This document shows, one piece after another, positions 11,648 to 18,443 of a stretch of 50,095 nt of DNA. The stretch is from a virus (Duplodnaviria > Heunggongvirae > Uroviricota > Caudoviricetes): IMG/VR virus record IMGVR_UViG_646564533_000009. One strand, given 5' to 3'. The notes under the pieces were generated by a model that saw only the letters and a program-made list of their open reading frames with translations, was not told the origin of the DNA and ran no database searches. The position numbers and the translations under genes are program-made. Each line of letters begins with the position of its first letter. The stretch's first letter is position 1.

Positions 11648-11883
11648 CATCCTCGTCCTTCAGGACGTGGATTCTTTTTCCGGATGCCGCGCCAGCGGCA
11701 TGTAGGGGCAGCTCACAAAACGGAAAAAATTGTACGCTAAGCCTCGCCAGGTGAACTGAATTCATTCCGATATGGGAATTCCCATATCGGGCGAAAACGG
11801 TTTGCTGTAACGGCAGAGTTAAGTAGGATTGCTGCGGGTGCTTGAGGCTATCTGCCTCGGGCATGAACACCAACGGCAGATAG

Positions 11884-11935
11884 ATAAAAGCCCCACCCGA
11901 CTATAAATCGAAGTGAGGCCCCTATATGCTCGTCA
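11884..11935 (-). ncRNA. sok: Predicted Sok-like antisense RNA
   Basis: Minus strand has a TTGACC -35-like element (plus 11964-11969) and a hairpin GCCUCAC…GUGGGGC followed by a U-run (ending near 11884), antisense to the mok/hok leader. Confidence 0.4.
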
Positions 11936-12138
11936 CATATAGATTGCCTCTTACGGACCGAAAGGTCAAGGAGAAGCAGGCTATGAAGCAGCAAAAGGCG
12001 ATGTTAATCGCCCTGATCGTCATCTGTTTAACCGTCATAGTGACGGCACTGGTAACGAGGAAAGACCTCTGCGAGGTACGAATCCGAACCGGCCAGACGG
12101 AGGTCGCTGTCTTCACAGCTTACGAACCTGAGGAGTAA
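11926..12138 (+). CDS. mok: Mok (in-frame N-terminal extension frame over hok)
   Basis: 70-codon frame sharing its stop with hok, as in chromosomal hok/mok loci. Confidence 0.6.
   Translation: MLVTYRLPLTDRKVKEKQAMKQQKAMLIALIVICLTVIVTALVTRKDLCEVRIRTGQTEVAVFTAYEPEE
11983..12138 (+). CDS. hok: Hok/Gef-family type I toxin
   Basis: 51-aa MKQQKAMLIALIVICLTVIVTALVTRKDLCEVRIRTGQTEVAVFTAYEPEE, very close to recalled Hok/Gef sequences. Confidence 0.9.
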   Translation: MKQQKAMLIALIVICLTVIVTALVTRKDLCEVRIRTGQTEVAVFTAYEPEE

Positions 12139-14022: not shown

Positions 14023-14388
14023 ATGACTGAACGGATAGAATTTGTTTTGCCTTACCCGCCGACGGTGAATACCTACTGGCGACGTCATGGCAATACGTAT
14101 TTCATCTCGGAAGCCGGAAAGCGTTATCGCCGTGATGTGGCGCTAATTGTTCGCCAGCAGCGGCTGAAATTAAACCTGTCCGGAAGGCTGGTGATAAAGA
14201 TTATTGCAGAGCCACCGGATAAGCGCCGTCGTGACCTGGACAATATCCTGAAAGCACCACTGGATGTGCTGACGCATGCCGGACTTCTCATAGACGACGA
14301 GCAGTTTGATGAAATCAATATTGTGCGCGGTCAGCTCGTTCCTGGTGGGCGGCTGGGGATAAAAATCACAGAACTGGAGTGCGCATGA
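14023..14388 (+). CDS. rusA: Holliday junction resolvase RusA
   Basis: 121-aa; alignable by eye with RusA (…PPTVNTYW…RRRDLDNILKAPLDVLTHAGLLIDDEQ…GGRLGIKITELE). Confidence 0.9.
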   Translation: MTERIEFVLPYPPTVNTYWRRHGNTYFISEAGKRYRRDVALIVRQQRLKLNLSGRLVIKIIAEPPDKRRRDLDNILKAPLDVLTHAGLLIDDEQFDEINIVRGQLVPGGRLGIKITELECA

Positions 14389-15074
14389 ATAACCACTATT
14401 TACAGTTTGTGCGTGAGCAGCTCATTATCGCCACCGCTGATTTGAGTGGGGCAACAAAAGGTCAGCTTGAAGCCTGGCAGGAGAATGCCATGTTCGATAC
14501 AGGGCGTTACAGGCGAAAAAAAATCCGGTACCGCGATGAAGTGACTGGAAAAATGATAACGCGGGATAATCCACCAATCCCGGGAAAGCAATCGCTGGCG
14601 AAGGTGACGTCAATTCCTCTGGTCAGTCCGGTTGAGTTTTCGACATCATCGTGGCGGCGGGCTGTTCTGTCTCTTGAAGAACATCATAAAGCCTGGTTGT
14701 TGTGGTGTTACAGCGGGAGTATTTGTTGGGAATATCAGATCGCGATAACACAGTGGGCGTGGAATGAATTTAATACTCAATCCGGTACCAGAAAAATTGC
14801 TGGGAAAACGCAGGAACGCCTGAAAAAATTAATCTGGCTGGCGGCGCAGGCAGTAAAAGCAGAACTTTTTGGTGGGGAAGGTTATGAATATCAGGAGCTG
14901 GCATTACTGGCGGGAGTGACAACTAAAAACTGGTCCAAAACATTTACTCGTCACTGGGTTGCAATGAAACACATTTTTCACCGACTGGATAGTGAGGCTT
15001 TATTATTTGTAATGAGAACACGTTCAAAACAAAAGGCGGCATTTTCAAAGCAAAGTGTTGCAAAAGTAGATTGA
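14379..15074 (+). CDS. Late-gene antiterminator Q-like protein
   Basis: 231-aa ORF directly after rusA and before a terminator-like hairpin and the tRNA cluster; position and size match QuuQ-type antiterminators. Assignment is by synteny. Confidence 0.6.
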   Translation: MRMNNHYLQFVREQLIIATADLSGATKGQLEAWQENAMFDTGRYRRKKIRYRDEVTGKMITRDNPPIPGKQSLAKVTSIPLVSPVEFSTSSWRRAVLSLEEHHKAWLLWCYSGSICWEYQIAITQWAWNEFNTQSGTRKIAGKTQERLKKLIWLAAQAVKAELFGGEGYEYQELALLAGVTTKNWSKTFTRHWVAMKHIFHRLDSEALLFVMRTRSKQKAAFSKQSVAKVD

Positions 15075-15137
15075 AAGGCATATATTTCATGCAAATCTGA
15101 TATTTTGCCGATTTTGTACGTGATGGCAAAAGCAAAC

Positions 15138-15166
15138 AAAACCCGCCCACAAGCGGGTTTTGTTGT
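15138..15166 (+). terminator. Terminator-like hairpin downstream of Q (tR'-like)
   Basis: acccgc-ccacaa-gcgggt stem-loop followed by a T-rich run. Confidence 0.45.
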
Positions 15167-15269
15167 GCCACTTATCTCGGATAGACATGGTGAATGCGCT
15201 GGTGGAGGAGATAAGGGTGATTTTTGTATGCTTGCAACATTGATTTCGTAACGTTATTATCCTGCGCCC

Positions 15270-15345
15270 GGCCCTTTAGCTCAGTGGTGAGAGCGAGCGA
15301 CTCATAATCGCCAGGTCGCTGGTTCAAATCCAGCAAGGGCCACCA
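15270..15345 (+). tRNA. ileZ: tRNA with CAU anticodon (ileZ-type tRNA-Ile2 / Met-like)
   Basis: Manual cloverleaf: acceptor ggccctt/aagggcc, anticodon loop cuCAUaa, T-loop ttcaaat, encoded CCA. Confidence 0.8.
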
Positions 15346-15346
15346 A

Positions 15347-15422
15347 CCGCCACTAGCCATCAGGAAAGAGCGTCAACCCTTTAAGTTGAGTGTGCGAGGT
15401 TCGAGTCCCCGGTGGTGGTCCA
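15347..15422 (+). tRNA. tRNA-like gene with atypical anticodon loop (argN position)
   Basis: Standard spacing: acceptor ccgccac/gtggtgg, U8A9, perfect anticodon stem tcaac/gttga, T-loop ttcgagt, encoded CCA. D-stem is weak and the anticodon loop reads ccuuuaa (C33; anticodon UUU by position), so identity is uncertain. Confidence 0.5.
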
Positions 15423-15435
15423 TTATCGGTATTCT

Positions 15436-15509
15436 GCGTTGTTAGCTCAGCAGGACAGAGCAATTGCCTTCTAAGCAATCGGTCACTGGTTCGACTCCAG
15501 TACAACGCG
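15436..15509 (+). tRNA. argO: tRNA-Arg (UCU anticodon)
   Basis: Manual cloverleaf: acceptor gcgttgt/acaacgc, D-arm gctc…gagc, anticodon loop cuUCUaa, T-loop ttcgact. Confidence 0.8.
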
Positions 15510-15681
15510 CTACACTTATTTTCCCGGCTCGCTTTTGCGGGCCTTTTTTGTATCTGCGCCACGCCCGGCGCATACCAACCACAGAGCCTTTCGGGGGGGA
15601 GCTTACGGAGTGGTCAGTGTGACTTTCTCTGTGGGCAGATCGCTCCCGGGCGTTGGCTCACCCACCCAAAGGAACGTCACG

Positions 15682-16113
15682 ATGTTTGGTATTTTTGGTA
15701 AAAAAAGCCCGCAGAGCGGCAACGGAAATTAAAAAGTTTGAAAAACGCGATCTGGCACAGGTGGTGATTAACGCCGCATACCTGGTGGCCTATGCAGATG
15801 GTGAATGTGAGGCTTCCTAGAAAGCGAAGATCGAACAGGTACTGCGTAATCAGCCTGCGCTGTCCGCGTTTACGTCAGAAATTAATGCGATTAGCGCAAC
15901 CATTATCGGTCAGCTGGATACGAACTTTAAAACTGGTCGTCGTGCGGCGTTACGTGAGATCGAGGATGTGAAACACGATACGCGTGAAGCGGAAGATGTG
16001 CTGGATGTGGCGGTGGCCATTGCGGAGGCAGACGGCGAAATTGAGCCGGAAGAGCGCAAGGTGCTGGAAGAGATTGCCGGTGTTCTGGGTCTTCGTCTGG
16101 AGAATTACCTGTG
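15682..16113 (+). pseudogene. TerB-like (tellurite-resistance TerB family) pseudogene
   Basis: ATG at 15682; frame is lost in an A7 tract (15700-15706) and the continuing frame has an in-frame TAG (…YADGECEAS*). Downstream residues (…EAEDVLDVAVAIAEADGEIEPEERKVLEEIAGVLGL…) look TerB-like. Confidence 0.55.
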
Positions 16114-16592
16114 ACGGTAAAACTGCGCCTGACTGTGGCTGCACTCCTGCTGTTTCTGGTGGTGATGGTGGATTTCACCAGCAGAATCATGTCGGTGCTG
16201 GCGGATGGGGGGCTGGTCTGCGGCATTATGGTATTGCTGTGGCCGGTGATAAAAAGAAACAGCCTGCATAATGCTTGATTTTTTTGTTTGCTGTTTATTA
16301 AAAACACTTCTGCATGGTGAATCCCCCTGTGCGGTGGGGCAATCAGCAAGAAGGAATATGGGGTAATCGCGGATTCAGGTGCTGATACTGAATTCACCGG
16401 GAGGCACCCGGCACCATGCTTTGCCACAAAAGTGTTATTTCTGTTTTTCTCAAACTATCATCGTTATCCCTTTATTTTCGGCTGCGCATGGCGCGGCCTT
16501 TTTTTTACGACCAGCCACTGGCAGATGGTCATCCTGTGATTTGATTCCGCTTCCGGCTTTTTAACTCTGTTCCTCTACACGGGAGAAATTCG

Positions 16593-18443
16593 ATGTCGAT
16601 TAAACATTACGATGTTATCAGGGCGGCGTCGCCGTCAGACCTTGCGGAAAAGCTGACACACAAACTGAAAGAGGGCTGGCAGCCATACGGCGGACCGGTT
16701 GCCATTACGCCGTACACACTGATGCAGGCGGTGGCTATTGAAGGAGAGCCACAGGTCGGCCCTTCATCTGAGCCGGATTGGTACTACGTCATCGTACTGG
16801 CCGGGCAGTCCAATGCAATGGCTTACGGTGAAGGGCTTCCGCTGCCGGATTCATACGATGCTCCGGATCCGCGCATTAAACAGCTGGCGCGCCGCAGTAC
16901 AGTGACGCCGGGTGGGGCTGCCTGCAGATATAACGATATTATTCCGGCTGACCACTGTCTGCATGATGTGCAGGATATGAGTACGCTGAATCATCCGAGG
17001 GCTGACCTGAGCAAAGGGCAGTACGGCTGTGTCGGTCAGGGTTTACATATTGCCAAAAAACTGCTCCCGTATATCCCGAATAACGCGGGGATCCTGCTGG
17101 TACCATGCTGTCGTGGTGGTTCGGCATTTACCCAGGGCGCGGAGGGGACATTCAGCGAGTCCACGGGGGCCAGTCAGGATTCGGCACGCTGGGGGGTGGG
17201 CAAGCCGTTATATCAGGATCTGATTTCCCGCACAAAAGCGGCATTGCAGAAAAATCCCAAAAACGTTCTGCTGGCCGTCTGCTGGATGCAGGGTGAGTTT
17301 GACATGAGCGCCGCCACCCACGCACAGCAACCTGCGCTGTTTACAGCCATGCTGACACAGTTTCGTGCTGACCTCTCCGTGTTTAACGCGCAGTGCCATG
17401 GTGGCAGTGCTGCAGATGTGCCGTGGGTTTGTGGTGACACGACGTATTACTGGAAAAATACATACGCTACCCAGTACGACACCGTGTACGGCGGGTATAA
17501 AAACAGGGAGAGTGAGGGCGTTTATTTTGTGCCCTTCATGACAGATGGTAACGGCGTCAATACCGCCACTAACGCGCCGGCAGAAGATCCGGATATTCCG
17601 GCATCAGGATATTACGGTGCGGCATCGAGAACGAATGGAAACCAGGTATCATCAAACCGCCCGACACATTTCAGTTCATGGGCGCGCAGGAGCATTATTC
17701 CGGATCGTCTGGCAACCGCTATTCTGAACGCAGCCGGGCGCACCTCAGCCTTCATCAGTGGTAAGGCACCGGAAATCAAACCCTCGCCCGGCGGCAACAC
17801 GCCATCGGGTCCGTCTGCAGATACGTCCGTTCGCACAATCTCCCTGCTGCCGGCAGCCGGAGAGGCTGCTGCGCAGGGCTGGAGCATTAAGGATGGCGGA
17901 ATTCAGTTGTCAGATGGTGTATTTAAGATCACCAAGCAGAGCAATAAAACCTGGTCCCTGACGCATCCGGTGGATGACGCAATTACCCTGCTGACACAGG
18001 GCGGCAGACTGACCTGTAAGTTCCGCCTGTCAGGCGCACTGACCAACAATCAGTTCGGGCTGGGGATTTATCTGTATACGGATGCTCCCGTTCCTGATGG
18101 TGTGGCGATGACGGGTACCGGTAATCCGTTCCTGATGTCGTACTTCACTCAGACCACTGACGGCAGAGTGAATCTGATGCATCACAGGAAAGCCGGAAAC
18201 ACGAAGCTGGGGGAGTTCGGCGATTACGGTAACGACTGGCAGACGCTGGAGCTGGTGTTCACCGCCGGCAGTGCCACGGTTACTCCGAAACTGAATGGAG
18301 TGGCTGGCCCGGCATTCCAGGTTATAAAAGACAGTCTGACACTGGGACTGAATGCGCTGACGCTGACGGATGTTACAAAAAATGCAGCGTATGGCGTTGA
18401 GATAGAAAGTCTGGTGCTGGAGATAAATGCACCGGCAGCATAA
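16593..18443 (+). CDS. Prophage sialate O-acetylesterase (NanS-p-like; DUF1737 N-terminus plus SGNH/SASA hydrolase domain)
   Basis: 616-aa ORF; GQSN motif (VIVLAGQSNAMAYGEG); sits between the tRNA cluster and the lysis genes where NanS-p homologues are found in lambdoid prophages of EHEC (recalled). Confidence 0.8.
   Translation: MSIKHYDVIRAASPSDLAEKLTHKLKEGWQPYGGPVAITPYTLMQAVAIEGEPQVGPSSEPDWYYVIVLAGQSNAMAYGEGLPLPDSYDAPDPRIKQLARRSTVTPGGAACRYNDIIPADHCLHDVQDMSTLNHPRADLSKGQYGCVGQGLHIAKKLLPYIPNNAGILLVPCCRGGSAFTQGAEGTFSESTGASQDSARWGVGKPLYQDLISRTKAALQKNPKNVLLAVCWMQGEFDMSAATHAQQPALFTAMLTQFRADLSVFNAQCHGGSAADVPWVCGDTTYYWKNTYATQYDTVYGGYKNRESEGVYFVPFMTDGNGVNTATNAPAEDPDIPASGYYGAASRTNGNQVSSNRPTHFSSWARRSIIPDRLATAILNAAGRTSAFISGKAPEIKPSPGGNTPSGPSADTSVRTISLLPAAGEAAAQGWSIKDGGIQLSDGVFKITKQSNKTWSLTHPVDDAITLLTQGGRLTCKFRLSGALTNNQFGLGIYLYTDAPVPDGVAMTGTGNPFLMSYFTQTTDGRVNLMHHRKAGNTKLGEFGDYGNDWQTLELVFTAGSATVTPKLNGVAGPAFQVIKDSLTLGLNALTLTDVTKNAAYGVEIESLVLEINAPAA

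Follow-up and report, generated by a model that had tools for sequence, protein, structure and literature searches.

Probable two-step loss of tciA, a TerB-family accessory gene in the prophage late-operon slot also used by stx

The IMG/VR virus record IMGVR_UViG_646564533_000009, a stretch of 50,095 nucleotides that is referred to here at its full length as the window, is a lambdoid prophage of Escherichia coli O55:H7 type, inserted next to ompW. Its late region carries tciA, a 143-codon phage accessory ('moron') gene of the TerB family, with an ATG at 15682 and a natural TGA stop at 16112-16114, and this copy of the gene is interrupted. Besides the tciA pseudogene, the interval 15270-16592 contains an intact tciB gene and a small RNA (sRNA)-like element of the STnc100 family. 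The order of the region is Q, tR'-like hairpin, tRNA cluster, cargo, sRNA-like element, esterase and lysis genes, the same as in the Stx phage 933W. Eight complete genomes from independent assemblies, RM12579 among them, match the locus over 1082 nt at 100% identity; seven of the eight are named O55:H7. Apart from a few single-nucleotide polymorphisms and one extra insertion sequence (IS) copy, RM12579 is collinear with the window over its full length.

Two lesions are found in tciA. A tract of seven adenines (A7) at 15700-15706 sends the frame of the ATG to a TAA at 15730-15732, leaving a peptide of 16 amino acids (aa), MFGIFGKKSPQSGNGN, and the TerB-like reading resumes in the +1 frame, from 15686. 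This frame is interrupted in turn by a TAG at 15818-15820, codon 46, before most of the TerB domain. In the intact tciA of Escherichia phage JLK-2012 (143 aa) the two sites read A6 and GAG, with ~95% identity elsewhere, and this comparison with an intact homologue, which the earlier note had proposed, bears out its description of a +1 change in the A7 tract and an in-frame TAG. With the A7 frameshift and the TAG, the window copy holds no uninterrupted frame able to yield a TerB domain. RefSeq already marks the 100%-identical RM12579 locus as a pseudogene, citing only an 'internal stop' and giving as the start TTG 15686, whose frame is the one after the A7 tract.

The family to which the gene belongs can be recognized from its repaired translation, which matches the Pfam family TerB (PF05099; E=1.6e-15, 57.8 bits with a cutoff of 24.4), phrog_632 ('tellurite resistance', moron category; 5e-69, with full-length coverage) and, over residues 15-137, the solved Klebsiella pneumoniae TerB structure 2JXU (E=3.7e-7). 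The similarity is strong, so the TerB assignment of the earlier note stands. Taken as a whole, 15682-16114 is very probably a dead tciA, a decayed accessory gene in a late-operon cargo slot that is also used for stxAB, lost in two steps.

The distribution of the two lesions was followed by exact 75-mer searches in a set of 20,395 complete-genome records of E. coli. The A7 75-mer matched exactly in 555 records (O157:H7, O26, O111, O103, O55:H7 and others), A6 on the same flanks in 8, and the exact TAG 75-mer in 185. Homopolymer errors are common on some sequencing platforms, and a frameshift and a stop in a gene that is in reality intact could come from errors of sequencing or assembly; the probability of this explanation is vanishingly small, given that eight independent complete genomes agree over all 1082 nt of the locus, that A7 and TAG recur in records from many laboratories and platforms, and that TAG is a substitution and not a homopolymer error. 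Assembly error is ruled out by this recurrence across independent assemblies, and the lesions are inherited alleles.

Allele classes were assigned for 156 usable loci from IMG/VR and fetched records, many of the sampled IMG/VR loci being clonal duplicates: 55 loci have A6, 51 have a tract-less N-terminus (MFGIFKKKTRR), 16 have A7 and are otherwise open, and 34 have both A7 and TAG. Because the TAG alleles fall within the A7 clade (TAG was seen only on A7 backgrounds, in 34/34 loci) and the closest open relative of the window allele is itself an A7 allele, 6-7/575 nt apart, the A7 change is placed first and the TAG second. In rare A7-type TciA proteins (P0008 and P0012) the residue at the site of the stop is Trp; its codon, TGG, is a single step away from TAG, and the stop may have undergone pseudo-reversion in them.

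The statistics of selection differ among the classes. The ratio of non-synonymous to synonymous polymorphism (pN/pS) is 0.045 in intact alleles, 0.14 in A7-open alleles and 1.05 in A7-TAG alleles, by which intact tciA is a normally constrained, working gene while the TAG alleles look neutral. The alleles are mosaic through recombination, hence variants private to the A7 clade were counted separately: 0 are synonymous and 7 non-synonymous (TAG included), whereas among the polymorphic codons of intact alleles 58 vary only synonymously and 16 change the amino acid (Fisher p=7e-5). For the A7-open alleles alone the private variants stand at 0:4 (p=0.003 vs intact alleles), so judged by these substitutions constraint appears to have been lost already at the A7 step.

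It could also be supposed that A7 is no lesion, with TciA expressed from TTG 15686 or by programmed +1 or transcriptional slippage, and that the TAG is the sole inactivating event. In RefSeq, A7 alleles are represented as intact 142-aa proteins, an example being WP_001303509.1 of O157:H7 TW14359 (locus L088, 2528-2956), read as a TerB protein from the TTG; proteins of this kind are common (847 members in P0056), and the pN/pS of A7-open alleles is below 1. This low value stems, however, mostly from synonymous variation that intact alleles also carry, as recombination predicts, and all four private A7-open variants are non-synonymous. Of the two start codons the ATG is the stronger and has the better Shine-Dalgarno spacing (8 nt, compared with 12 nt at the TTG), and the window copy is dead through its TAG regardless. 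This explanation is therefore unlikely. The TTG gene model is, we think, an annotation convenience, through which low-level expression would be possible, and the A7 alleles annotated as intact from the TTG in O157:H7 and other enterohaemorrhagic E. coli (EHEC) are probably dead as well.

The earlier note had left two fates open for the gene, a decayed alternative cargo gene or a phase-variable one. If the A tract were a phase-variation switch, slipped-strand mispairing would toggle it between A6 and A7 and TciA between on and off, and several features of the locus agree with such a switch: a homopolymer lies five codons into tciA, A6 and A7 both exist on the same 75-nt flanks, and a second, truly length-variable tract of G residues is present in the leader of the A7 lineage. 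The population data speak against it. The 555 A7 and 8 A6 records are no mixture, and heterogeneity in tract length, looked for across the sampled loci, is nearly absent, 49/50 A7-class loci having exactly A7, none A8, and the sole exception (L101) an interrupted AAAGAAA. No near-identical A6/A7 allele pair was found among these loci, the smallest distance being 5/575 nt, to an allele with an already interrupted tract, and the rare A6 alleles on A7 flanks are recombinants, closest (2 nt) to tract-less alleles and not to A7 alleles. Seven bases are also short for a contingency locus, and slippage cannot revert a TAG, whose alleles evolve neutrally. Phase variation of the A tract is highly improbable, and of the two fates decay is favoured, with the TAG alleles nested in the A7 clade and neutral, the private variants all non-synonymous, and the prophage degenerating.

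The second tract, about 85 nt 5' of the tciA ATG, has between six and twelve G residues (G6 to G12) in A7-lineage loci, and in 93/104 scorable intact-allele loci the site is a stable, interrupted GGGGGTG. This variation may be neutral slippage in the leader of a dead gene, or the tract may be regulatory; a promoter scan between the tRNA terminator and the ATG, this site included, found no tciA-specific promoter. In a wider form of the idea, the A7 alleles that dominate in EHEC would be alive, with low, tunable expression through the TTG or A7 slippage and the poly-G tract (G6-G12) as a second switch, so that tciA would be a contingency-regulated TerB cargo and the TAG of the window a later loss; we consider this very unlikely.

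Some points weigh against a two-step loss, or against parts of it. The selection statistics are built on few substitutions in recombination-mosaic alleles, with many clonal duplicates in IMG/VR. The A7-open alleles retain a 142-codon open reading frame (ORF) from the TTG and are counted as intact by RefSeq, the tract interruption in L101 is synonymous in the TTG frame, which also agrees with A7 being no lesion, and A7 alleles may have kept some residual function. The intact tciB in all TAG loci could reflect a use of its own, or too little time elapsed since the loss. Lastly, Q-dependent expression and translational coupling, set out below, are read from the layout, in which the promoters and terminators are promoter-like and terminator-like motifs only.

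The loss of tciA most likely went as follows. An insertion converting A6 to A7, five codons past the ATG, came first, after which ribosomes starting from the well-placed ATG make only the 16-aa peptide, and access to the TerB frame is limited to occasional slippage or to initiation at a weak TTG, 4 nt further on. On this A7 background, a change of GAG to TAG at codon 46 then truncated any product of the TerB frame, and the allele spread with prophages of EHEC and enteropathogenic E. coli (EPEC) by descent and recombination.

The features around tciA are listed in Table 1.

Table 1. Features of the late region of the window, with positions counted from the first nucleotide of the window
Feature	Position	Strand	Basis
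Late antiterminator Q, PF06323 type	14385..15074	+	Pfam E=1e-90; RefSeq annotation
Candidate PR'-like sigma-70 promoter TTGCAA-17-TATATT, overlapping the end of Q	15058..15086	+	Consensus scan only; position as pR' of 933W; putative
tR'-like hairpin, stem of 12-13 bp followed by a U-rich tail	15135..15164	+	Fold z=-4.1, 0/200 shuffles as good; terminator scan
Candidate pT-like promoter just 5' of the tRNA cluster	15232..15260	+	Scan; putative pT annotated at the same spot in 933W
tRNA-Ile2, CAT anticodon, ileZ homologue, 72.5 bits	15270..15345	+	Identical to 933W ileZ
Degenerate argN homologue (ARAGORN label 'tRNA-Lys TTT')	15347..15422	+	Rfam 28.2 bits vs cutoff 29
tRNA-Arg, TCT, argO homologue, 68.1 bits	15436..15510	+	Two positions differ from 933W argO
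Intrinsic terminator 3' of the tRNAs, common to 933W	15526..15553	+	933W annotation 'terminator upstream of the stx genes'
Poly-G tract (G7), leader of tciA	15593..15599	+	Sequence
tciA pseudogene, TerB family	15682..16114	+	A7 and TAG; RefSeq pseudogene flag
tciB, DUF3927, 55-aa hydrophobic protein, intact frame	16111..16278	+	Pfam E=6e-16; phrog_1470 at 7e-29
STnc100-family (PasD-like) sRNA-like element	16283..16455	+	Rfam 100.8 bits vs cutoff 47
Intrinsic terminator-like hairpin with T8 run, 3' of the sRNA-like element	16480..16508	+	Terminator scan
NanS-p-type esterase, DUF1737 + SASA + DUF6645	16593..18443	+	53% identity with the 933W esterase
Lysis cassette: class II holin (from 18891), endolysin RrrD, Rz-like spanin	18891..20058	+	RefSeq annotation of the collinear RM12579 locus; ORFs

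The slot that holds tciAB can be recognized in Stx phages from both annotation and DNA homology. The annotation of 933W runs Q, pR', qut, terminators, ileZ-argN-argO, terminator, stx2A, stx2B, esterase, S and R, and in Shigella phage 75/02 stx1AB occupies the equivalent slot. On the left edge, the homology with 933W through the tRNA cluster and the terminator runs to ~15560 and then ends; on the right edge, a core of ~110 nt (GCATGGTGAATCCCCC ... ACCGGGAGGCACCCGGCACCATGC) lies 3' of stxB in 933W and 75/02 and 3' of tciB in the window and JLK-2012. Because both edges of the slot are homologous in DNA to 933W, tciAB and stxAB are regarded as alternative cargoes of one slot, and the claim of the earlier note that a TerB gene sits where stx sits in Stx phages holds for the position of both stx2AB of 933W and stx1AB of 75/02, with homologous flanks. 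Like the two Stx phages, the window has a late-operon slot bounded by a terminator and tRNA cluster on the left and by an STnc100-like element and a NanS-p-type esterase on the right, followed by lysis genes; unlike them, it carries tciAB in place of a toxin and has no stx sequence. Its Q occupies the same position as that of 933W but belongs to an unrelated family, a comparison of the two revealing no sequence similarity.

The same two genes, ~93-98% identical to those of the window, are found in JLK-2012 (from O55:H7 DEC5E) and in EHEC/EPEC lambdoid prophages as TerB/DUF3927 pairs. In JLK-2012-type loci, too, a tRNA cluster downstream of Q precedes the pair and the esterase and lysis genes follow it, tciA and tciB have the GTGA overlap, and the sRNA-like element lies downstream. 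JLK-2012 differs from the window in its intact tciA (A6, GAG), in its Q, and in its tRNAs, which are Asn and Gly by ARAGORN, with Thr added in the record. The EHEC/EPEC pairs are annotated as 'tellurite resistance TerB family protein' and 'DUF3927 family protein'. In the homologous ompW prophage of O145:H28 (L086 6084-7542, the PPompW / Stx2_14040 record), ISEc20 lies directly after the tRNA cluster, tciAB, the esterase and the lysis genes are deleted, and the terminase genes immediately follow.

More distant relatives share the gene and not the setting. In phage P1, TciA is 41% identical to that of the window over its full length and tciABC also adjoins phage tRNA genes, but it is a three-gene operon on a plasmid prophage and not part of a lambdoid late region. 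The TerB of the ter operon (terZABCDEF) has its domain in common with TciA, whose partner in the window is instead the 55-aa DUF3927 protein; no other ter gene (terZ, A, C, D, E or F) is present in the RefSeq annotation collinear with the window to ~24.2 kb and beyond the extra IS copy.

The arrangement of Q, tR'-like hairpin, three tRNAs, NanS-p and lysis genes, described in the earlier note as that of Stx phages, matches 933W in its order, while of the three tRNAs only two are sound and the middle one is a relic of argN. The middle tRNA was called by ARAGORN alone, is absent from the RefSeq annotation, and has a broken D stem and C33; it aligns with 933W argN (anticodon TCG), and its acceptor and anticodon stems stay paired via compensatory changes. 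As for the element downstream of tciB, STnc100 is related to the PasD sRNAs, and TerB is listed among the common neighbours of the prophage sRNAs PasA and PasC (bioRxiv 10.64898/2026.05.13.724894, 2026 preprint).

By analogy with stx2 of 933W, and from the layout of the region, PR' is the most likely promoter for a working tciAB, whose transcription would depend on Q-mediated antitermination at both tR' and the post-tRNA terminator, and the GTG start of tciB, which overlaps the tciA stop (GTGA), would couple its translation to that of tciA. The tR'-like hairpin is a putative termination point of a short PR' transcript. Between the PR'-like promoter and this hairpin (15087-15175) there are weak matches to the isrK and OrzO-P sRNA models, which are consistent with a short StxS- or IsrK-like PR' transcript; StxS is described in PMC7547250. 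Upstream in the same prophage, adjoining the paa adhesin gene, are a sok antitoxin RNA (103.9 bits) and a hokD toxin gene, at 11836-11985 and 11983-12138.

The prophage that carries the dead tciA is itself decaying. The annotation of the RM12579 prophage contains fimbrial, portal, HNH and integrase pseudogenes and an IS3-family element. The window has two inverted 1.26-kb copies of IS3/ISEc31 type, at 24219-25478 and 42515-43789, of which the former, lacking in RM12579, splits the major capsid gene; its junction with the capsid gene has no exact match in any complete genome, the best being 97.5%, and the window therefore represents an O55:H7-like strain distinct from RM12579. Rfam matches to 'isrC' at 24288-24410 and 43583-43705 lie inside the IS copies and were set aside as unrelated to tciA. 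The loss of one accessory gene fits a degenerating prophage with such pseudogenes, IS copies and a degenerate middle tRNA.

The partner gene has fared differently from tciA. In the window a TerB-type TciA (phrog_632) is directly followed by a small hydrophobic protein of the DUF3927/TciB type (phrog_1470), the two forming a moron pair, and tciB keeps its full 55-codon ORF in 34/34 TAG loci. TciA homologues occur in 131 phage records, including P1, P7, D6, virulent jumbo Erwinia phages, and Vibrio and Pseudomonas phages. In P1, tciABC is non-essential for plaque formation in a CRISPR interference (CRISPRi) screen (PMC10695390), and the label 'tellurite/colicin/cell division' given to these genes rests on homology (PMC9603915); literature searches on the function of tciA and tciB gave homology-based labels only, and no experimental report on TciA. 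Membership of TciA and TciB in a defence system was considered and rejected, a scan of PADLOC-DB giving nothing significant, with only 13.5 bits (E=0.007) for TciA and no match for TciB. Because purifying selection on intact tciA is strong and the family occurs in temperate as well as virulent phages, a membrane role at the time of infection is suggested, and from these sequence patterns our guess would be that TciA and TciB have a membrane-associated role in the infected cell, with TciB as the likely anchor, rather than one in toxin-like virulence.

The finding is one of ordinary gene decay, largely captured already by public annotation, and its new point, the probable death of the A7 alleles annotated as intact, is a modest one. 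The probable status of the EHEC 'tellurite resistance TerB family protein' as a frameshifted remnant matters for annotation and for pan-genome counts. Intact tciA, which is constrained and spread over phages of many genera, temperate as well as virulent, would be a sensible choice for functional study; the dead copy of the window would not. The site of stx serves as a general slot for cargo, its edges being homologous, and holds tciAB in many non-Stx EHEC/EPEC prophages; this flexibility of the slot is useful for reading prophage mosaics and the gain or loss of stx.

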